From positions 63,037 through 127,036 of the IMG/VR virus record IMGVR_UViG_3300033121_000954: a stretch of 64,000 nt of DNA. One strand, given 5' to 3'. The stretch's first letter is position 1; the number at the start of each line of letters is the position of its first letter. Under the pieces are notes generated by a model. The model had not been told where the DNA came from and made no database searches. It worked only from the letters and a program-made list of their open reading frames with translations. Below are positions 26,166-64,000 of the stretch, one piece after another. The position numbers and the translations under genes were made by a program. Source of the stretch: a virus (lineage: Duplodnaviria; Caudoviricetes).

Positions 26166-26600
26166 TTAAAATGCTGGTTGATATGTATCGCTATCACTCT
26201 CCCACGAAAAATCGCGAACGTTGTCAAAGCCGTCAGACAACCATTGGATGACATCCTGTATTGTCTTTTCATTATCTCCGGTCCATTGACTGTGTTGGTG
26301 GAGACCATCTGTATCCACAAAACAGAATGTGGTTGTTGGGTATTCCTTTTTGCCACGAATTGTGACACAAATTTCCCAATCAGAACTCAGAAACCTATTT
26401 AATGCGTCAAAATAGGTTTCACTGTCATCACGCTCCTGTTCCACGTATTCCGAAAAATCCCATCCGCTATCGTATGCGGCTGTGATGGGGATTGTGATAT
26501 GGAAGTCTAAATCGGTCACTTCTGGGTTGAAATATTTTTGAAAATGACTATCCGCATATTGTACCCCAACTTTGAGGGGGTAGGTTTGCGTATAACTCAT
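26166..26600 (-). CDS. Hypothetical protein (full-length paralog of 33404..33700)
   Basis: Near-identical core FQKYFNPEVTDLDFHITIP...QWTGDNEKT. Confidence 0.65.
   Translation of the reverse strand: MSYTQTYPLKVGVQYADSHFQKYFNPEVTDLDFHITIPITAAYDSGWDFSEYVEQERDDSETYFDALNRFLSSDWEICVTIRGKKEYPTTTFCFVDTDGLHQHSQWTGDNEKTIQDVIQWLSDGFDNVRDFSWESDSDTYQPAF
26261..26545. repeat. 285-bp imperfect direct repeat, copy 1 (copy 2 at 33412..33696)
   Basis: Colinear, gap-free alignment at a constant offset of 7151 bp. Confidence 0.9.
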
Positions 26601-27945: not shown

Positions 27946-30900
27946 TCAATGTTGACCTTCCACAATTTTGATTTCTTCGGGTGTCAGTTCGTATAGTTGG
28001 TAAACAAGTTGGTCAATTTGTTGATTAGTTTGTTTTATTTCGGTTTGGAGGCCATTTGCAATTCGCTTTTGCTCGTTGAAGTATTGCATCCACTCTGCCT
28101 CTTCGGAAAGCCTCAACTGAATTTTAATTTTCTTCAACTCTAATAGAAAATCCTTGAACTTCAACTCATACCAGTTTTGCAGATTTTTACTGAGTTTCTC
28201 AATAGCAAATTTTGATTGTAATAAATTCAAAAAGTGATATTGAACTTTTTGGAGTGCAGTAATTGAAAACATAATTTCTTCGGCCTTTTCTATAAATGGC
28301 TTTTGTTCATTCACCGAAACCAACGGAATGGGAAATGGTTCAAGATATTTTGTTTTATATCTGAAGTAACCACCCCTGAGTATGGTTCCTGTACATTTTA
28401 AGAAGAACCACATTACCTCTGAATTCAAAACAGTCAGTAGATAACGTTCATCTCCATGAACATTTGCCTTTTTTATTAGCGTATAGACCTGAGTATTATG
28501 AAAATAACCATTTTCATCTATCGTCATATTCGTACCGAAGGAAGTCTCAGGAGTAACAATTTTTTTGCTTTTAAACAATGATATTTCCCGTGACCGATGA
28601 AGGCTGTACCAATATTTTGGATTGGTTTTATACCGCACCTTCTTTTCGATCAATTCCTCTTTATAAGGCAAAAAATAACTGTATGTTAAAGGAAATTGTT
28701 GTTTAAAAACCTCTTCTTCATAAGGTAGCGTTTTACCGTCTTTTTCATAATGAGGATATATCACAAAATCACTTGACCCCAATGGTCCGTACTTCTTCAC
28801 ATCCTCTCCTTTTAGTAGGGGCTTCATTAAAGATGCTTCCAGCATAACTTCTTCACCCGTTTTTTCTGAAAACCCGATAAACTTATTACCATCTAATCTC
28901 CCTTTCAGATAGAAAATATCATCACCAACAGAAACCACTCCTTGACTGATCCATTCAAATATATCCTTTACGGTATATTTTTGCTTCTTGATCTTGTCCA
29001 TTACACCCAACACATCAACGCTATGTAAATTCCATTTCGCATTCGTTAATAGAGCAGCATCCATCTCACGGAACTCAAACAGGCTAAAAAGGTCTTGAGG
29101 CTTCATTCCTCTGAATAAAACCTTTTGATTATTCATAGATAGTGTAATGATACATGTATATGTTGAAGCATCGGCAAACACCATTTCTGAACCAAAATGA
29201 ATTACAGATTCAACAGATTTATTCTCTGATAGGTATGCTCTTATTCCTTCCCCGAAATCACTGACCATGAACTTGTGAGGTAAAATAAACCCTACTTTTC
29301 CGAAACCAGAAATCAACTTAAAAGAACGTTCCATAAAAAGAACATAGATGTCAAACCTACCTGTGGCGCTTTGAAATACATTTTCATAATATTTGGATTC
29401 TATTTCAAAATTCGCCCTCAATCCTTGTACTCTAAGATATGGAGGATTACCAATAACCACATCAAACCCACCTTTTGCAAAAACCTCTGGAAATTCATTT
29501 TCCCAGTCAAATGCTTTGTCTCCTGCTACTGTTTTATCGGCAATGAGCGAGTTGCCACATTTGATATTGTTGTTTAGAGAGGTGAGTTTTCTCCCTTTTT
29601 GCGCAGTCCTAAGCCAAAGTGAAAGTTTAGCGATTTCTATGGATTCCTCATTTATATCTACTCCAAAAAGGTTGTTTTCAAGGATTGAATTTTCAACGTT
29701 CTGGAATACGAATCCATCACCAAATAACTTCGCTTGCAATTCATCAACGTATCTATGCTCTAATACTAAAAACTCAAGTGCTTGGTTTAAAAATGCGCCG
29801 CTACCGCAAGCGGGGTCACAGATTGTAACCTCTAACAACCAATTCCGATACTGTTCTAATTTGTTTTGCAGGACTTTAACCTTCGCCTTGTTTTGTTTAC
29901 CTGTTCTTTCCTGTTCATACTCTTCTTCGTTTATTCCTAACTCTAATTTCTTATTCTTGCAAAGGCTTCCAACAGTGTTATCAACTATGTACTTGGTAAT
30001 ATATTTGGGCGTGTAAAAAACACCATCCTTTTTTCGTTTTGTCTTGTCTTTATCAACTACCTGCCCTTCTAACTCAGCCTGTATTTCTTCAATCTCGCTC
30101 AAAGAATGTTCAAATATATGGCCAAGTATATTAACGCTAACTTCGCTTTCAAAGTCATAATTACTAATATTTAAAGTATGTTTATAGAGTAGGGTGTCAT
30201 CTATCTTAATATTATCCAGAATTTCATCTGGCAAAAACAAACCTCCATTATAAGCAAAAATATCATGCTTTTTCCCTTTGAAGCCTGTATTCAGGTAACC
30301 AAAATATTTAATAAATCGGCTATAAAGAGGTTGATACTCGTCATATTGATCTCTTAAATCTGTCCATTGATTGACAATTTCCCTAATTGAATTTGGCGGC
30401 AACAACAACCTGTCTTCTGCAAAAAAGACAAATAAGAACCTGTCAAGAAGTTTTTGGGTTTTATTGAATAAAGTCAGTTTGTCATACTGAGGATTGTTCT
30501 TTACTATATCTGTGAAAATATCATTCCTAAATGCTGAATAATCCTTGTATAGTTTATTGGTAACAGTTTCTTCTACGGCAAGAGATTCTTCCTTAATTTG
30601 CTTTGGGATGCCTTGAAATACACAGTTTTTTGACAAGCATAACCAAAGGAGGTTAAATTCGTCTTGGGTCAACTGAAACAGGTTGAAATCTTCAAAATCA
30701 ACAGAATTGTCAATGTAAAACCTCAATTTTTCAAAATTGGAAGTTATTATATAAACAGCATCAGGTTGGTTGTTCTTGTACCCAAATGCCTGTGTCTCAA
30801 TCTTGCTCAAATTGGTTGTATCTGTTCCTTTCAACTCAATTACGGCAATGATTTTACCGTCTTTGATTATTGCGCCATCAGCACTTTTTGCGTCTTTGAT

Positions 30901-33403: not shown

Positions 33404-33700
33404 TTACAGTGTTGTTTTTTCATTATCGCCAGTCCATTGACTGTGCTGGTGGAGACCATCCGTATCCACAAAACAGAATGTGGTTGATGGGTCTTCCTTT
33501 TTGCCACGAATTGTGACGCAAATTTCCCAATCAGAACTCAGGAACCTATCTAATGCGTCAGAATAGGGTTCACTGTCTTCCCGCTCGTGTTCTACATATT
33601 CCGAAAAATCCCATCCGCTATCGTATGCGGCTATGGCGGGGATTGTGATATGGAAGTCTAAATCTGTGACTTCTGGATTGAAATATTTTTGAAAATTCAT
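33404..33700 (-). CDS. C-terminally truncated paralog of 26166..26600
   Basis: Similarity stops at GDNEKT, followed by a stop two codons later. Confidence 0.6.
   Translation of the reverse strand: MNFQKYFNPEVTDLDFHITIPAIAAYDSGWDFSEYVEHEREDSEPYSDALDRFLSSDWEICVTIRGKKEDPSTTFCFVDTDGLHQHSQWTGDNEKTTL
33412..33696. repeat. 285-bp imperfect direct repeat, copy 2
   Basis: Aligns with 26261..26545. Confidence 0.9.
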
Positions 33701-34210: not shown

Positions 34211-34290
34211 AATCGTTGTTGTTTAGTTAAATAATAGCACAAAGATATAGGCAGTCAGAATACGTTCCAAACATTTTTGCACTATTAACA
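34211..34290 (-). promoter_or_regulatory. Early promoter module (sigma-A type)
   Basis: TGTTAA..TTTGGA-N18-TATCTTTG-TGCTATTATTTAACTAAAC..ACGATT-ATG; similar to the copies at 52582 and 54065. Confidence 0.8.
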
Positions 34291-34301
34291 TATCATTAAA
34301 T

Positions 34302-43776: not shown

Positions 43777-44022
43777 TTGTTTCCTCAGTTGAAATTTATA
43801 TTTGCACATAGTGGTGCTGTTACATTTTCTCGTTTTCCATCGCTAACACCGATATGCAAGAAGTGGTTATCTTCACTCTTTTTAATAACCATCTTCCCCG
43901 TGCTCAGATTTATACGACGTTCATAGTCCATGCACAATGGGCATTTGAATACGATTTCATCGCCATCAATAAATGATGTGCATTGATGATGGATATTTGA
44001 TTGTAAGTTTAAAATCATAATG

Positions 44023-44105
44023 TGGGGGTGGTAGGAATCGAACCTACGCAGACTTGCGCCCTCGGTTTTACAGACCGCTCCAATTGACCGCTATGGGACA
44101 CCCCC
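44023..44105 (-). tRNA. tRNA-Tyr (GTA), CCA not encoded
   Basis: GGGGGTG/CACCCCC acceptor, anticodon loop CT-GTA-AA, long variable arm, GTAGG-TTCGATT-CCTAC T-arm. Confidence 0.9.
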
Positions 44106-50832: not shown

Positions 50833-51126
50833 TTACAACCATTCCATTTCCAATTCGCGGTCATCATAATCAAACCCCATGTAGGCATTGAGTAGTTCTT
50901 TGCGCGAAATTACATTCGGATTCCAATCCGTCCATGCCAGAACGGTGGCTACTACATCCTCGTTTGACAAGTCACATGGCTGGCCTTGTAGCCAAACCAT
51001 TGATTGACCGCCGCCAAGTTCTGGACGTGTATTTTCTGGAAATGAACGCCCGCAAAATGAGGACGACATCCATTGCTCGTTTGCCAGATATTCGTGGCAT
51101 TCGTTGACAAATTCTGAAATTTTCAT
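50833..51126 (-). CDS. Hypothetical early protein
   Basis: Follows the promoter at 51151. Confidence 0.55.
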   Translation of the reverse strand: MKISEFVNECHEYLANEQWMSSSFCGRSFPENTRPELGGGQSMVWLQGQPCDLSNEDVVATVLAWTDWNPNVISRKELLNAYMGFDYDDRELEMEWL

Positions 51127-51150
51127 AATCTATTTGTTTTAATTATAGCA

Positions 51151-51191
51151 CAAAGATACGGTGTCAAGAAATACCATCCAAATCATTAACA
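51151..51191 (-). promoter_or_regulatory. Early promoter module
   Basis: TGTTAA..TTTGGA-N18-TATCTTTG. Confidence 0.75.
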
Positions 51192-52581: not shown

Positions 52582-52664
52582 AATCCTTGTTATTGTTTTA
52601 GTTAAATAATAGTACAAAGGTATGGTCAGTGAAAATGCCCTCCAACTATTTTTGTACTGTTAAC
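52582..52664 (-). promoter_or_regulatory. Early promoter module, near-identical to 54065..54144
   Basis: Shared + strand block TTGTTTTAGTTAAATAATAGTACAAAGGTATGGTCAGTGAAAATGCCCTCCAA. Confidence 0.85.
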
Positions 52665-53029
52665 TTTCCATTAACGATCTACGCTGTTCGTAGATTTCAA
52701 GCACTTCCGAGATCAACTTAGCCGTTTTAGTCCATTCCTCTCCTTGTAATTTTTCAAGAGTGGGAATTTGCAAACCCAGCAATTCAAAATAATCCTCACT
52801 TGCACTGCAATCAATCTCACAAACAAATTTTACATCTGTTTTGGGGACAATTGCATTAATTTGCTCTGCATATTCATAAATTTGCAATTGTGAAGGAACA
52901 AGACAATGCAAATTCAGTCCGCATTCTTCCTCTACGATGCAAAACGCCCAGTAATGAAATCCCTCAAATGGTACGAGTCCATTTGCGCTCGATATGAGGG
53001 GATTTAAAAATTTGCCGATGTATGGGTAT

Positions 53030-54064: not shown

Positions 54065-54144
54065 AATCGTTGTTGTTTTAGTTAAATAATAGTACAAAGG
54101 TATGGTCAGTGAAAATGCCCTCCAAACATTTTTGCACTGTTAAC
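54065..54144 (-). promoter_or_regulatory. Early promoter module
   Basis: Near-identical to 52582..52664. Confidence 0.85.
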
Positions 54145-54421
54145 ATATCGTTTTGCTTCTGTTTAATCTAACAAGTTGGGCCATCTGCCGGGTATCTTGA
54201 TCGTACATGCCTTTTGGATACGCAGATAAGCCACCACGATGGTCTATTTTGATGATATGCTCATTAAATTTGAAATGAATCCGTTCATGGTGGGCATTTT
54301 GAACGACCCAAAGACGAATATTATTCATCTCAATTTCATTATCAATATCAAATTGATAAACACCATCCAAGAAATACTGGACTGTGGGGTAAACGAATTT
54401 TATATCAGATTTTGTAAACAT
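54140..54421 (-). CDS. Hypothetical protein, paralog of 53774..54064
   Basis: Shared motif as above. Confidence 0.65.
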   Translation of the reverse strand: MFTKSDIKFVYPTVQYFLDGVYQFDIDNEIEMNNIRLWVVQNAHHERIHFKFNEHIIKIDHRGGLSAYPKGMYDQDTRQMAQLVRLNRSKTIC

Positions 54422-54711
54422 AGGTTCTATTTTATTTATACGTCATTTTGCAAAAGATGTAATATTCCATTCTTTTTTTGTCATCTTCAAAATCAGTCCA
54501 TGATTGAAATCCCTCGTCCGAATTGTGACAGATCATAGCCAAATAACCCATTTGGCGGATTTCTTTAAGTTCGGCAAGAAGTTTTGGGTCATTTGGAACC
54601 GGATACCGGGTTGTCATTTTCATTCCAATAAAATTAGCACTACCACGAGTAAGATAAGAAATGTAGAACATAAAAAGAACGTTTAACGACGACCAGTCGT
54701 TTTTAATAGTA

Positions 54712-54752
54712 CAAAGATAGGGACGGGTTGGAATACAATCCAAACTGTTAAC
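54712..54752 (-). promoter_or_regulatory. Early promoter with TTGGA-N6-TCCAA palindrome
   Basis: TTTGGATTGTATTCCAA...TATCTTTG. Confidence 0.8.
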
Positions 54753-54959
54753 ATATAAATAACAAAAAGGAATGGCCCGTGAAAATTTTGTCCGCGAAAT
54801 GAGAACGGGTAATACCCCTGTCCACAGGAAGCACTTTTTCCGAGATTTCACGTTATATTCAGGGGGGTACCAACCCCTCCAGACCCCCTTTTATACCCCC
54901 CATGTTTTTTTAATAACAGCCCCATTGTGCATCCGTAAATAGGTTATGACTTCGTTGTT

Positions 54960-55045: not shown

Positions 55046-55393
55046 CTACATATTAAACTTGGCGATTACTTCGTCCAAGTTTTCAATCTGCCAAGTTGGA
55101 ATACAGCTAACACTGCTGTCTGAATAACAAATACGGACGATGTCCGCTTTTTCATCATACCAGTCAGCATCATTGATAAGTATATCCAATGCTGGATTGT
55201 ATTCCATCTCTCCCCATACCAAACGTTGGGGATAAAACGCCACATGACTCATTTCCGAGTTTTGATCGAGTGTTTGGCGCATCGCTTCAGCGTCAACGAA
55301 TGTGTATAATTCTTCTCCGATGGTTACGATTCCATCCTTGTCAAAAAATGCAATTTTGTAAACTTTCGGGAGTGTTGTTGTATTTTCTTGCAT
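55046..55393 (-). CDS. Hypothetical protein
   Basis: Co-oriented ORF. Confidence 0.55.
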   Translation of the reverse strand: MQENTTTLPKVYKIAFFDKDGIVTIGEELYTFVDAEAMRQTLDQNSEMSHVAFYPQRLVWGEMEYNPALDILINDADWYDEKADIVRICYSDSSVSCIPTWQIENLDEVIAKFNM

Positions 55394-55412: not shown

Positions 55413-55823
55413 TTAAGCGAAAATTTTGCAAAGTTCTATCAGCGTCTGATAAACTTCATAATAGCCATTGGAGTGGCTTTGGTCGTATGCGTAGTCGTAC
55501 ACTTTGTTGCGGTATTGCGATGGGATAGTGTTCAATCCAGATTCTTCAATTATGTAATCTTCGATCAATTTTTCAACTGCCCGATTGTGGGCATTTGCTA
55601 TTACCACCATTGCAGCGTATCCCTCATTTTTGACCAAATATTCCTCTAATTTCTTGGCGTACTCCATTACTTGTTCAGTACTGTGGCTGGGTGGGAGAAT
55701 GGGCTTCATCGGGCGCATTGAATACGGGACTTCAAGTCTCTTGCAATATGTGATAGTATCAAACACATCATTGCCCGTTTTGCAAAGTTCGGTAAGGGTG
55801 GGTATGGTTGGAAAGTCTTTCAT
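55413..55823 (-). CDS. Hypothetical early protein, paralog of 55909..56337
   Basis: Shared 'PTL.EL', 'P..P.L...H....V.EYA.KLE..L', 'I..E.GL'. Confidence 0.65.
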   Translation of the reverse strand: MKDFPTIPTLTELCKTGNDVFDTITYCKRLEVPYSMRPMKPILPPSHSTEQVMEYAKKLEEYLVKNEGYAAMVVIANAHNRAVEKLIEDYIIEESGLNTIPSQYRNKVYDYAYDQSHSNGYYEVYQTLIELCKIFA

Positions 55824-55847
55824 TATCTGTTTGTTTTAATTATAGTA

Positions 55848-55897
55848 CAAAGATAGGAGGGGTTGGAATACCATCCAAACATTTTCCGCCCGTTAAC
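55848..55897 (-). promoter_or_regulatory. Early promoter with TTGGA-N6-TCCAA palindrome
   Basis: GTTAAC..TTTGGATGGTATTCCAACCCCTCCTATCTTTG. Confidence 0.85.
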
Positions 55898-55908
55898 TTT
55901 GCATTAAC

Positions 55909-56337: not shown

Positions 56338-56384
56338 TTTATTTGCTTTTAATATTTTCAATCGTTGTTTTAAAAATAATAGTA

Positions 56385-56434
56385 CAAAGATAGGGGGGGT
56401 TGGAATACCATCCAAACATTTTTGCACTGTTAAC
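56385..56434 (-). promoter_or_regulatory. Early promoter with TTGGA-N6-TCCAA palindrome
   Basis: TTTGGATGGTATTCCAACCCCCCCTATCTTTG. Confidence 0.85.
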
Positions 56435-56547
56435 ATATAAATAACAAAAGATTGTTTGATGCAAACAACTGCTCCAAACAAATTTGACTACTAACTAATA
56501 TAAACCCACCTACTCAAGGCGAAATCTGAAAGAATAGATTGGTTGGG

Positions 56548-57432
56548 TTAGTATTTTAAATCAAAGTTTTTAAAAATTGGCTTAATGTGTATTCCATACC
56601 TGTATGTATTTGGATATGGCTTAACAATAGCAAAACCTCCATGATTTGCTTCTTTTACAAAACAAGTCTTGAAAGTGGTTGGATCATTTGCTTTAAGTTC
56701 TTCTAATTTTATATAAGCAGAAGGACTATCATAAAAATGGACCAATTGTGAACTTTCCTCTGGCTTAAATCCATTAACAGTCAATGCAGTACACATATTC
56801 TTTCTATAATCAAACTCTTCAGTTCCATTATAAATTCTCTCGATACGAGTAATTCGCATTTTTCTGTAAATAGACATTGGGTGACGATCCATAAATTTAG
56901 CAAGATAGACAGATGCTTGATCCTGAATAAACTCCGATTTCTTTCCTAACGAAAAAAAGGTTAAATCCTTTCCGCCTTTCAGCGTAACGCTGTCGCAGTA
57001 TGGTATATTGTTGGAGGAATCAGAACTAACATCTACCTTTCTTCCATAAGACATAGCACAGCCCTGACAGGAAGCAAGAAATAAACGCTTTTTAAATTTT
57101 GAAGAATCCTTTATATCGGATTCACTAAATTGTATCCTTACATTTAATTTTGAAAACTTAATTTTTTTCTCAAATTTTGCCCTACCAATAACACTTATAT
57201 ATCCCTTTCGCATATCCGCCAATCCACTTTCAATCAAATGAGCAATGGCCCTCTTTACTGCTGTAATAGAGGAGCCAAAATATTTGACCAATTCTTTTTG
57301 TTGGGATACCCGAATCCTACCAGAACGATAGTGGGCTAAATACAAGTAAATACGATGTGCTAATACATAACGATATTCACCACCTTGTTTGGTAGAGAAA
57401 TATTCAATCATGGAGTAGGGCAAATAAATCAT
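56548..57432 (-). CDS. Basic protein with probable N-terminal winged HTH
   Basis: 'SQQKELVKYFGSSITAVKRAIAHLIESGL' HTH-like segment. Confidence 0.55.
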   Translation of the reverse strand: MIYLPYSMIEYFSTKQGGEYRYVLAHRIYLYLAHYRSGRIRVSQQKELVKYFGSSITAVKRAIAHLIESGLADMRKGYISVIGRAKFEKKIKFSKLNVRIQFSESDIKDSSKFKKRLFLASCQGCAMSYGRKVDVSSDSSNNIPYCDSVTLKGGKDLTFFSLGKKSEFIQDQASVYLAKFMDRHPMSIYRKMRITRIERIYNGTEEFDYRKNMCTALTVNGFKPEESSQLVHFYDSPSAYIKLEELKANDPTTFKTCFVKEANHGGFAIVKPYPNTYRYGIHIKPIFKNFDLKY

Positions 57433-57615
57433 ATTATACCCATAAGTATCATCACTGAATATATTTCTTTACCGAAATCTTAATGTATTAACATACTATT
57501 AACAGATATAGCCCATCCTCCTAACAATTGGAAAATGAGCGATAAAAGTCTTAGCAACCATTAAATCTGATGCTATGGATTGGTTGGGTATTGATTTTTA
57601 AAAATTCAACTCTTG

Positions 57616-58080
57616 GTTAGCCAAAATTTAATCAGAAATAACCTGGCAATTTGAAATGTTGTAGGTTTTTGTGAAATCGCCGCCGTTAGTAAGGATTAAA
57701 TCAAGTTGTGATGAGTAGTAGCCATTATTTGACCCATAACCAGGTATGCGAACAGGATGCCCATTTGTTGGCTTTAAAGCAATTCCAAAACCGTCAATCC
57801 TTTCAAAAAAATCGTCAGTCGTTAAGTCAAATTCAAACCCCTCGAAATCCGACATGGCTAAATCAGACAATGACAAATAATGGTTTTCGCAGCAATCCTG
57901 TTCATGGTTTGAATACAATTTCAGGCCGTTGCTAAATTCGATTAAATCGTTAGTGCCGTCAACAGCGACCACTTTCAAATTTTTCATATTATTGGATTTT
58001 AATTTTTGTAAAAATCGGCTAACCCTGCATCCACGCCAACGCCGCCTAAACGTTGCGCATCGGGGATGCACCAGTTATGC
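57616..58080 (+). mobile_element. Integron-like gene cassette (G|TTAGCC ... GGCTAAC-attC), ORF antisense to attC
   Basis: GTTAGCC at 57616 is the exact complement of GGCTAAC at 58017. A 64-bp GC-rich imperfect palindrome ends in GTTATGC (58074-58080). Confidence 0.6.
57628..57987 (-). CDS. Conserved phage hypothetical protein (HEQDCCE / NGYYS motifs)
   Basis: Start reassigned to MKNLKVV; the ORF fills the cassette. Confidence 0.7.
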   Translation of the reverse strand: MKNLKVVAVDGTNDLIEFSNGLKLYSNHEQDCCENHYLSLSDLAMSDFEGFEFDLTTDDFFERIDGFGIALKPTNGHPVRIPGYGSNNGYYSSQLDLILTNGGDFTKTYNISNCQVISD

Positions 58081-58328
58081 GGGAATTAAACGATAAATAT
58101 CATTTAAAAAATTCAAACCACCTCGTTAGTATTGAGGATTTGAACTCCAAACGACACCTTTCCAATCCCGATTCCAATATAACCCCCATCCCATCCAAGG
58201 GAAGTATAGCAATCAATACCTTGAACTGGATATTGTTCGTACATGAACAGACTGGTAGTCCGTCCAAAAATTGTAAACCCAATCTCGTAGTGGTTCGTTT
58301 CTGGGGTATGTGTATAAAAGAAGTTCAT

Positions 58329-58733
58329 TTATAGTTGAGTTAGAAATGTTGCTACTGCCCGCTCAATTTTGCGGATTTCTGCTTGGAAATCGTCAAATAT
58401 GAGAAGATTGGACAACCTATCAATGCCATCCAACGTGTCCGTGTGTACTTGAGCATTTTCATAGCCCAGTTGTTCAGCAATTTTCAATGCGATTCTAAGA
58501 TGTAGTTGCACAAAAACTGCAATTTGATATTGAGTAACGTTCTCAATGTTGGATAAATTTTTAAAGAATACCGAATTGTGACATCCTACTACCGAACCCG
58601 TAAATTCAAAAATATTCACATATCCATCAATCGATTCAATGACCTTGTACGGAAATTGATCCAATTTGACCGCACCTTCTGGTGCAAGAGATGCGTTGAA
58701 TTTTTCAACGTTGATCTTGACTAATTTTTTCAT
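58329..58733 (-). CDS. Hypothetical early protein
   Basis: Follows the promoter at 58758. Confidence 0.55.
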   Translation of the reverse strand: MKKLVKINVEKFNASLAPEGAVKLDQFPYKVIESIDGYVNIFEFTGSVVGCHNSVFFKNLSNIENVTQYQIAVFVQLHLRIALKIAEQLGYENAQVHTDTLDGIDRLSNLLIFDDFQAEIRKIERAVATFLTQL

Positions 58734-58757
58734 ATTTGTTGCTGCGTTTTAATAGTA

Positions 58758-58809
58758 CAAAGATAGGAGGGGTTGGAATATATGGTCCAAACAATTCCGT
58801 ACTGTTAAC
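58758..58809 (-). promoter_or_regulatory. Early promoter (TTGGA-N8-TCCAA variant)
   Basis: GTTAAC..TTTGGACCATATATTCCAACCCCTCCTATCTTTG. Confidence 0.8.
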
Positions 58810-59362
58810 TTTTAATTAACATCTATTAAAAATTATCACACCAAGCAAAAATACAAAAAATGTAATTATTGAGGAAAGAAAAGTCCATTTTATGTAATTA
58901 TTTATTTTTGTTTGGTTGGATGATACATATCCAAAACAAAAATACGCAAATAATAGGATGGATGTAATATAAATTGTTAATAAGGCGTATAACATATGCA
59001 ATTGATTGGTTGCGGGTTGGAGGGTTGGTTGGGCGTAAAACATTGATACACAGTGAAAAAGGCTGTTATTTTTTCCAACCAACCAACTTTTCCCCTCCCA
59101 AAATCAAAATTAAAAACTGTTTTTTTGATTTTTTCTTTTTGCTAATATTAACTAAATTCCTATCCTAACGGTAATAGAAATATAATTAAAAATGATTAGA
59201 AGCAATATTACTGCCCCAACCAGTAGTTTAATCTTTTGTGTTGTATTTAGTTTGTCCGTCATAATTTCTTTTAGCAAATTGAGCGAGTGGAGGTCTGAAT
59301 TACCAGCCCTCCTTCCATTTTTTATTAATTCTTCTTTTTTCATTCTTTTTTTTAAAATTATA

Positions 59363-59421: not shown

Positions 59422-59856
59422 TTACGCCAATTCTGCCTTAATTGCTTCCAGTTCCAATTCTGCTAAGAATTCCGGCGAAGCGATTCTAAGCAGTTTACTT
59501 TCCAGTTTTGCAAGTTTTTCCTTTCGGTTGACCAGTTCTACTTGGACTGCTCGTACTTTCAAATCGTTAATCCACTGGTTGAACGTTGCGCCCATCCAAG
59601 TGAACTCCGTATCAATACCAAGCAATTTTCCTGCTTCAGCATAATCCTTTTGTTTACCTACCAAAAAAGCGGCAATTTCTTGTAGTTGGTTTAGATGCCG
59701 GATTGTTTGGATTTGGAAAGACTGTCCGCCGTTGGAATAGCGGAAATCTCCATTGGTTACAAACGTACCACGTTCAGCAGATGCAATTTCTGCTTTTTGG
59801 GTTTGGACTTTTGCATAAAGAGTCCGTACTTCATTCTGTTGTGTTGTTGTTGACAT
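59422..59856 (-). CDS. Conserved phage coiled-coil protein
   Basis: Clean ORF with phage-like codon use. Confidence 0.6.
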   Translation of the reverse strand: MSTTTQQNEVRTLYAKVQTQKAEIASAERGTFVTNGDFRYSNGGQSFQIQTIRHLNQLQEIAAFLVGKQKDYAEAGKLLGIDTEFTWMGATFNQWINDLKVRAVQVELVNRKEKLAKLESKLLRIASPEFLAELELEAIKAELA

Positions 59857-61301: not shown

Positions 61302-61321
61302 TTTCGTCCTTTATTTTTTAG

Positions 61322-61406
61322 TACACCTGACAGGCTACGATCCTGCACGGTCTTTATGACCATTGGGGCTTAAACCCAACGCGGCTACCAATTTCGCCAC
61401 AGGTGC
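61322..61406 (-). tRNA. tRNA-Leu (TAA), atypical T-loop ATCGTAG, CCA not encoded
   Basis: GCACCTG/CAGGTGT acceptor; TTGGG-TTTAAGC-CCCAA anticodon arm; long variable arm. Confidence 0.85.
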
Positions 61407-61419
61407 AATTATTAAAATG

Positions 61420-61492
61420 TAACCCCAGCCGGGCACGATCCGACAACCAATCGCTTAGAAGGCGAACGTTCTTCCAGTTGAACTATGGGGCT
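61420..61492 (-). tRNA. tRNA-Arg (TCT), atypical T-loop ATCGTGC, CCA not encoded
   Basis: AGCCCCA/TGGGGTT acceptor; GTTC/GAAC D-stem; TCGC-CTTCTAA-GCGA anticodon arm. Confidence 0.85.
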
Positions 61493-63621: not shown

Positions 63622-64000
63622 CTAACCAACTGACTGCGGGGCAAGGGCGAGGCGGAAGCCGATACTGTAGTAGCGGAGCGTCGGCTCGTTGACGTTGCGA
63701 TAAGCGGAGCGGCAGTACTGAGCAACGTTGATCCAGCTGCCGCCGCGAAACACGCGGAGCACGCCCGAATCCGGTCCCGTTGGGTTGATTTGCGGCTCGG
63801 CGGGGTAGTCTCCATACCAATCATTGCACCATTGCCACACGTTGCCGCTCATGTCGTGGAGACCCAGTTCGTTGGGCTTTTTCCGGCCGACGGGGCGGGT
63901 GCGTGAGTTGGAGTTTTTATACCACCAAGCGACTTCTTCCAAGTCGTTGCTTCCTGCGTACAAGTAGCCTTTGCTTTGAACGCCGCCACGAGCAGCGAAC
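63622..64000 (-). CDS. FGE-sulfatase / C-type-lectin-fold protein, partial (5' end outside window); probable DGR target
   Basis: 'FAARGG', 'PVG.KKPNELGLHDMSGNVW.WC.DWY', 'RV.RGGSW...R.A.R...IGFRLA'; the frame is open to the window edge. Confidence 0.85.
   Translation of the reverse strand, partial: FAARGGVQSKGYLYAGSNDLEEVAWWYKNSNSRTRPVGRKKPNELGLHDMSGNVWQWCNDWYGDYPAEPQINPTGPDSGVLRVFRGGSWINVAQYCRSAYRNVNEPTLRYYSIGFRLALAPQSVG

Follow-up and report, generated by a model that had tools for sequence, protein, structure and literature searches.

The gene cassettes of classical integrons are delimited by attC sites, which are imperfect hairpins with AAC/GTT cores, and the first bases of each cassette are the complement of the inner box of that cassette's site. 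In sedentary chromosomal integrons, the sites of a given lineage form a homogeneous family, and the array ends at a distinct site beside the gene for a tyrosine recombinase. The I2 insert of integron integrases is thought to be required for recombination of single-strand hairpins. Another kind of cassette, the promoter-early stem-loop (PeSL) cassette of T4-type phages, reportedly combines a promoter with stem-loop repeats (Arbiol et al. 2010), and its exchange is attributed to homologous recombination. Clusters of attC sites in virulent phages, including a Polaribacter phage, were described by Qi et al. 2023 (PMC9892861), in whose hands the integron integrase IntI1, the sole enzyme tested, was active on five of six sites. 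Literature searches on such systems in phages led to no further paper, and to nothing on hairpin-headed cassettes with inverted ORFs or on a Xer-like partner enzyme. Here we describe a phage locus (positions 57617-58074, plus strand, 458 bp) that in our judgment is quite probably one mobile cassette of an integron-like system found in phages of Bacteroidota-type hosts.

The stretch of DNA that we analyzed (the window, 64 kb) is the end of a 127,036-bp IMG/VR virus record with a GC content of 36% and an estimated completeness of 69% (CheckV). Around positions 57616-58080, every gene lies on the minus strand. The left boundary of the element is the box GTTAGCC (57616..57622, plus strand), which reads GGCTAAC on the gene strand and lies 5 nt past the stop codon (57628-57630) of a minus-strand ORF (57628..57987). 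By analogy with integrons, the crossover would fall between the G and TTAGCC of this box, which would place the cassette start at 57617. Between the ATG of the ORF and the hairpin lies an AT-rich leader of 29 nt (57988..58016, minus strand), which begins with GATTTTTAC, a T-run right after the hairpin on the transcribed strand. This leader is homologous to the leaders of other cassettes that carry the same kind of gene, and the same GATTTTTA follows the homologous hairpin at 6158-6222 of contig L069.

The leader abuts a 64-bp attC-like folded site (58017..58080, plus strand), an imperfect palindrome. Its R'' box, GGCTAAC (58017-58023), is followed by CC and by an outer stem, TGCATCC / GGATGCA (58026-58032 / 58064-58070), which encloses a bulged inner stem and a loop with a variable center; after a CCA spacer comes the R' box, GTTATGC (58074-58080), in which the predicted crossover lies between G and TT at 58074/58075. 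The palindrome, the boxes GTTAGCC and GGCTAAC, and the position of GTTAGCC relative to the stop codon of the enclosed ORF are exactly as reported in a preliminary description of this locus. The R' box extends into a 14-mer, GTTATGCGGGAATT (58074..58087, plus strand; AATTCCCGCATAAC on the gene strand), that looks like the end box of a neighboring cassette type. L093 has an identical 14-mer ahead of the same hairpin, and in L069 the homologous gene is followed by the related CCGCATAAC. The window holds neither a partner complementary to the extended right box nor a further exact copy of CCGCATAAC.

The 119-aa product of the ORF belongs to DUF7448 (Pfam PF24240, E 2e-7), is predicted to be all-beta, and has the invariant motifs CCE.H and GYGSNNGYY. 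Its AlphaFold model has a pLDDT of 85.5, and a fold search with this model against the PDB gave no match at E <= 0.001. The nearest cultured relative of the ORF is in Winogradskyella phage Peternella_1, where the boxes of the gene are nearly complementary, and 39 homologous loci are present among viral contigs. Blocks of small early genes in the window are preceded by a promoter-like intergenic repeat on the minus strand, TTTG ... TAnnTTTG, which we take to be the Bacteroidota promoter consensus. Copies of this repeat lie at 58750-58820, 56359-56445, 55818-55908, 54704-54767, 54065-54155, 52585-52675, 51121-51182, and 34214-34300, and several of them start with GTTAAC.

To compare the folded site with bacterial attC sites, we used a covariance model made from 11 genuine attC sites of four plasmid integrons (aadA1, aadB, sat2, catB3, aacA4, cmlA5, VIM, OXA-1, dfrA1, arr-3, and VEB), aligned with their R and L box pairs. 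With filters off, the top match in the window is 58017-58080 on the plus strand, over the full length of the model, with 17.9 bits and an E-value of about 0.03; the minus strand of the same interval scores below 7.6 bits. The spacing fits the R''-5-L''...L'-6-R' geometry, as first described. Calling the boxes canonical was slightly generous, since GGCTAAC and GTTATGC each have one mismatch to RYYYAAC / GTTRRRY and pair with one another at five of seven positions. The site resembles a canonical attC in geometry and in polarity and is a candidate for one. The model assigns 46-51 bits to the psp, qacL, aadA2, and cmlA1 sites, on which it was not trained, but only 8.9 bits to the genuine estX attC, whereas a 25-nt palindrome in another locus reaches 17.5 bits. 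The array sites of the relatives described below score at most 12 bits, for the most part on the antisense strand. The match at 58017-58080 is weak evidence, and the model itself is narrow and of limited specificity. The runner-up in the window (55218-55278, minus strand; GCCAAAC ... GTTTGGT; 15.5 bits, E about 0.12) lies inside the ORF at 55046-55393 and is probably a chance match, and the other half of the genome gave no match at E <= 3.

As in an integron cassette, the start of the putative unit, TTAGCC (57617-57622), is complementary to the inverse core of its own site, GGCTAA (58017-58022). The ORF, however, reads away from that site, with the gene on the minus strand and the site on its 5' side. 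A CALIN (cluster of attC sites lacking an integrase) has two or more attC sites in the space of a few kb, whereas the window has one, the only one that the hairpin scan described below found in the genome.

Taken in isolation, the site is at chance level by motif count, by fold energy, and by a genome-wide hairpin scan. GTTAGCC occurs four times in the window against 2.9 expected, and the fold z-scores of the palindrome range from -0.7 to -1.3. A strict scan for unbranched NNNTAAC...GTTANNN hairpins, which superseded an earlier and too permissive scan for loose AAC...GTT folds, found 58017-58080 as its sole match in the 127-kb genome, compared with 0.75 matches per block-shuffled genome. Likewise, exact 10-mer chain links (GTTA plus six bases, followed farther on by their complement plus TAAC) are not enriched in this genome (18, against 24 in the control and 35 in shuffles). 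The hairpin (63% GC) ranks among the ten most GC-rich 60-nt windows of the genome and is single-copy there. It is the comparison with other contigs that argues for a feature of non-random origin.

Hairpins that are 91-96% identical to that of the window occur in at least seven other contigs, at the same position relative to the genes, and a search with the hairpin core through viral and metagenome contigs returned nine more copies. A 16-mer from the left arm of the hairpin gave 14 matches in viral contigs, all of them unrelated and due to chance. The L092, L093, and L095 hairpins differ from that of the window at two of 49 body positions, and over 59 nt the L088 hairpin and its copies share 91.5% identity with it. 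The consensus fold of an eight-member family has 14 pairs, seven of which show compensatory double changes, and by this comparison the stem covaries. The sense strand of the family folds at -11.7 kcal/mol and the antisense strand at -9.6 kcal/mol, and T-runs come after most members. Near-identical copies lie in contigs of 45-50% GC; together with the presence of a GC-rich hairpin in an AT-rich genome, this points to acquisition from a GC-richer phage lineage. The idea that the mismatched box pair GCATAAC...GTTAGCC of the window is a fresh recombination hybrid was weakened by the finding that two L069 hairpins have the same pair. L069 (CAZXMM010000009.1) is binned as an uncultured gammaproteobacterium; with its Bacteroidota-type promoter motif (TAnnTTTG), its small genes of phage-like character, and four or more hairpin sites, it is probably a mis-binned phage contig.

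We then compared loci homologous to the DUF7448 gene in gene-sense orientation. In many of the homologues, a GTTAxxx box stands 20-60 nt ahead of the ATG and is matched by an exactly reverse-complementary xxxTAAC box 2-20 nt past the stop codon, and six distinct box pairs bound them: GTTAGCC/GGCTAAC, GTTAGGC/GCCTAAC, GTTATAGCTT/AAGCTATAAC, GTTACCTGCC/GGCAGGTAAC, GTTATGTG/CACATAAC, and GTTATATAC/GTATATAAC. Complementary GTTA.../...TAAC boxes are thus present at many homologs of 57628..57987, where paired boundaries had been suggested as a point to check. The pair found in the window, GTTAGCC/GGCTAAC, also bounds the orthologous gene in L003, L004, and L068, and the homology of their TTAGCC-DUF7448-GGCTAAC unit with the window ends exactly at the boxes. 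Flanking inverted repeats of at least 10 nt are present at six of 33 non-redundant loci, compared with 2.5% of upstream and downstream flanks paired at mismatched loci. The related loci contain 21 exact 10-mer chain links, against 3 in the control and 3.0 in shuffles; at least 13 links follow one another in a 29-kb contig, and a complete 46-kb phage contributes six. These are cassette arrays with a chain complementarity like that of integron cassettes, and the boxes that come after the hairpin and after the gene stay complementary through many sequence changes.

Two further observations concern such arrays. In the complete 46-kb phage (G002; L043:14563-17033 and L044:399-935), which has no recombinase, the array starts immediately behind a module of DUF1351, RecT, and metallo-beta-lactamase-fold genes, and an HNH endonuclease gene comes after it. 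In L011 (about 2005-2445), the arms of one array hairpin are some 380 nt apart, as if there had been an insertion into the site.

Three comparisons bear on which unit moves. G1 and G8 have 562 nt in common at 87.5% identity, with flanks that differ on both sides; the common stretch starts a little within the hairpin that precedes DUF7448 and ends immediately after GGCAGGTAACG (...GGTAACG). L091 has 689-702 nt in common with L094, L096, and L088 at 99.1-99.9% identity between unrelated flanks, and the shared unit, TAAC-hairpin-GTTACAC-C5 methyltransferase gene-GTGTAAC, begins exactly at its first TAAC and ends exactly after its last. DNA methyltransferases are carried by other cassettes of the family as well. 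L092 equals L095 plus one 447-nt unit (hairpin, GTTATGCGGA, an ORF of about 100 codons, and TCCGCATAAC) that sits exactly after ...TTATAAC, so that the two loci form an empty/occupied pair. These comparisons indicate that hairpin and gene form the unit and that the hairpin lies 5' of the gene; in the relatives, the mobile unit is bounded by TAAC...TAAC on the gene strand, or by GTTA...GTTA, cut after each G, on the other strand.

Chain complementarity is symmetric and cannot by itself assign a hairpin to the preceding or to the following gene. The orientation is backed instead by the 99.9% identical units of the L091 group, by the L092/L095 empty/occupied pair, by the position of the recombinase in relatives, and by the plus-strand-only match of the canonical-attC model. 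The same evidence favors the proposal in the preliminary description that the ORF points away from its site, and the comparative evidence as a whole supports its central suggestion, an attC-like site bounding a phage gene cassette of the form TTAGCC...antisense gene...GGCTAAC-hairpin-G. Other loci break differently. L093 and the window have the upstream 14-mer and the hairpin body in common but not the gene, L008 diverges from L003 and L068 right before GTTAGCC, and L069 has a hairpin of the family downstream of a DUF7448 paralogue, with a 5' box that matches the upstream box of that gene. The hairpin body has breakpoints at both of its edges, for which one canonical crossover point does not account; either both strands or both boxes are usable, or the conserved hairpin bodies undergo homologous recombination.

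Searches with PF00589 and TIGR02249 in six frames found no match, and hence no tyrosine recombinase, in the 127-kb contig (69% complete), which extends the earlier statement that the window lacks an integrase to the whole contig. A tyrosine recombinase is likewise missing from nine of ten related contigs that were searched, of which three are rated complete, and the matches obtained in the two MAGs to which L068 and L069 belong are confined to other contigs. In G8, a gene for a 269-aa recombinase (L048:3631-4440) begins 56 nt past the last cassette box. The best NCBIfam matches of this protein are XerA, XerD, and XerC, and TIGR02249 matches it in two separate stretches, with 154 bits against a cut-off of 265 bits, which indicates that the IntI-specific insert is missing. 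Four relatives of the enzyme, with 57-96% identity, are found in other viral contigs. In three of these (L098-L100), as in L097 (G8's own copy), about 50 nt between a variable xxxTAAC box and the recombinase start codon are conserved (TAAC-N8-ATTTAAYRGAAT...AATCAATTAGTTACA; L097:3445-3500, L098:1-64, L099:60-116, L100:3445-3500). This stretch, which leads from the last box to the Xer-like gene, is a candidate attI-like site, and in both of the loci that continue upstream of it, L097 and L100, chained cassettes reach it. Seen from the opposite strand, the array end has the layout of an integron (recombinase, special site, cassettes) with the ORFs inverted. The position of the Xer-like enzyme suggests that it may act on these sites.

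Given these comparisons, other readings of the locus can be weighed. The preliminary description had the phage borrowing bacterial machinery, that is, a classical integron attC cassette served by a host IntI. Such a cassette would have the R''-5-L''...L'-6-R' geometry seen here, the site is the top match of the plasmid-attC model, and recombination by IntI1 of five of six virulent-phage attC sites (Qi et al. 2023, PMC9892861) lends it a precedent. Nevertheless, we regard it as unlikely: there is no IntI in this contig or in any related contig examined, the ORF is inverted compared with those of integron cassettes, the array sites of relatives score at most 12 bits with the plasmid-attC model, and the sole recombinase found beside such an array, which is phage-encoded, is Xer-like and lacks the IntI insert. 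A cassette of the opposite phase, which was initially favored, would make the hairpin the attC of the upstream genes (58113-58733), and the DUF7448 cassette would run in the canonical sense from TTAGCC, where the hairpin ends, to a decayed attC of its own that starts at GGCTAAC (57622 downwards). The L069 hairpin that follows a DUF7448 paralogue with matching boxes fits this phase equally well, the break of L008 against L003 and L068 falls exactly before GTTAGCC, and most bulged bases are on the arm beside the upstream gene. The opposite phase was demoted by the G1/G8, L091-group, and L092/L095 comparisons and now appears rather improbable. The units of L091/L094 and L092/L095 carry the hairpin on the gene's 5' side, the homology of four orthologous cassettes ends right after GGCTAAC, the canonical-attC model matches the plus strand only, and in the window no hairpin that could be a downstream attC for DUF7448 follows GGCTAAC, only weak, branched AT-rich folds.

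The hairpin could also be only a terminator or attenuator between co-directional genes, its box pairing being incidental. On the transcribed strand it would form an RNA hairpin of -29.4 kcal/mol followed by GAUUUUUAC, and most hairpins of the family have T-runs behind them; still, a consensus terminator scan made no call at the hairpin, and far-side covarying boxes, exact TAAC breakpoints, and the empty/occupied pair are left unexplained, which makes this a very improbable account of the locus. The roles of terminator and recombination site are compatible, not exclusive. Finally, the motif count, fold z-scores, and hairpin scan within chance expectation would suit a GC-rich palindrome lying by accident beside an accidental 7-mer inverted repeat, but this explanation is scarcely credible, being already contradicted by the 91-96% identical hairpins in at least seven other contigs and by the same box pair in L003, L004, and L068.

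We thus return to the reading of the locus as one mobile cassette. In this fragment the cassette is solitary: its neighbors are not cassettes, and the sequence beyond GGCTAAC is AT-rich and not site-like. The short Xer-like recombinase with its array-end junction, present in G8/L097 and L098-L100, is absent from this contig. Close relatives with an empty site, sought among viral contigs by means of the genes at 58329-58733, 56548-57432, and 59422-59856, were not found, and the exact predicted empty-site junction had no match; of the empty-site relatives anticipated in the preliminary description, there are none for this phage in viral contigs, but L092/L095 supplies an empty/occupied pair among its relatives. 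With a single cassette in the phage, current gene exchange by it is no more than a possibility.

A separate feature of the same region is a perfect 7-bp pair, TACTAAC ... GTTAGTA, at 56489-56553 (minus strand), in a weak AT-rich fold right after a 294-aa gene. A 39-nt part of this fold (56522-56560) recurs with 74% identity at 57563-57601, downstream of the DUF7448 cassette, and the fold may be a decayed second site.

As to mechanism, we propose that the excised unit would circularize, so that its two boxes close the base of the hairpin, and that a single DNA strand would then fold, the gene-sense strand folding better owing to G-T pairs. Strand exchange at the TAAC/GTTA core would be the work of a tyrosine recombinase, in the manner of IntI at attC. 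This role probably falls to the short Xer-like enzyme that related phages encode at their array ends, beside the attI-like stretch, and not to a bacterial IntI. The solitary cassette in the window most likely represents a past acquisition, which could be re-mobilized only by an enzyme from the unsequenced part of the genome, from a co-infecting phage, or from the host. The hairpin and its T-run may, in addition, damp read-through transcription.

The system differs from classical integrons in several respects. Its ORFs point away from their sites, the recombinase of the relatives (269 aa, Xer-like, without the IntI insert) is encoded in the same direction as the cassette genes and not divergently, the complementary boxes reach a greater length (up to 10 nt), and the elements lie in phage early regions, where phage promoters drive their transcription. 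It has in common with them the imperfect hairpins with AAC/GTT cores, the cassette start complementary to the unit's own inner box, the homogeneous family of sites, and the array that ends at a distinct site beside a tyrosine recombinase. With PeSL cassettes it has in common small phage early genes that lie between stem-loops and are shuffled among genomes; it differs from them in its exact breakpoints at a 4-nt core, its covarying flanking boxes, and its associated site-specific recombinase. The phage clusters of Qi et al. are alike in that attC-type hairpins bound small genes in lytic-type phages without an integrase, in that one case is flavobacterial (Polaribacter), and in that DNA methyltransferases are frequent cargo, as in the relatives described here. 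Consistently inverted ORFs, hairpin-headed units, chained 10-nt boxes, and a Xer-like recombinase do not feature in that paper.

A bolder possibility, slightly less likely than not, is that Bacteroidota phages own an integron-like exchange system in which a 5' folded site is cut at TAAC by a short Xer-like recombinase without an I2 insert, that this system is either independent or an ancestral form of the integron, and that the cassette in the window is a stray member of it. If so, Bacteroidota phages of the sea and the gut would pass on their small accessory genes, anti-restriction methyltransferases among them, as discrete cassettes, site-specific recombination would add to mosaic homologous exchange, and a single unit could be traced across unrelated phage genomes. 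An apparent Xer-like enzyme without the integron-specific insert would also bear on the evolution of IntI from Xer (Escudero et al. 2020, PMC7790495). The practical value of the window itself is smaller, in that it documents a solitary, precisely delimited cassette; the clean comparators are the 99.9%-identical unit in two contexts and the empty/occupied pair.

Three other features of the window were recorded. An Rfam scan returned tRNAs only, and the window has minus-strand phage tRNA genes for Tyr-GTA (44022-44105), Leu-TAA (61321-61406), and Arg-TCT (61419-61492). A gene with an FGE-sulfatase (SUMF1-like) domain and a GC content of 65-77% is present at window positions 63625-64000 (minus strand) and again, outside the window, at genome positions 28043-28700. 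The two copies are 94.6% identical over 355 nt; since the contig stops within the second one, this repeat is probably where the assembly failed. Lastly, a 288-nt direct repeat, 92% identical, lies at window positions 26258-26545 and 33409-33696, with 7.2 kb between its copies.
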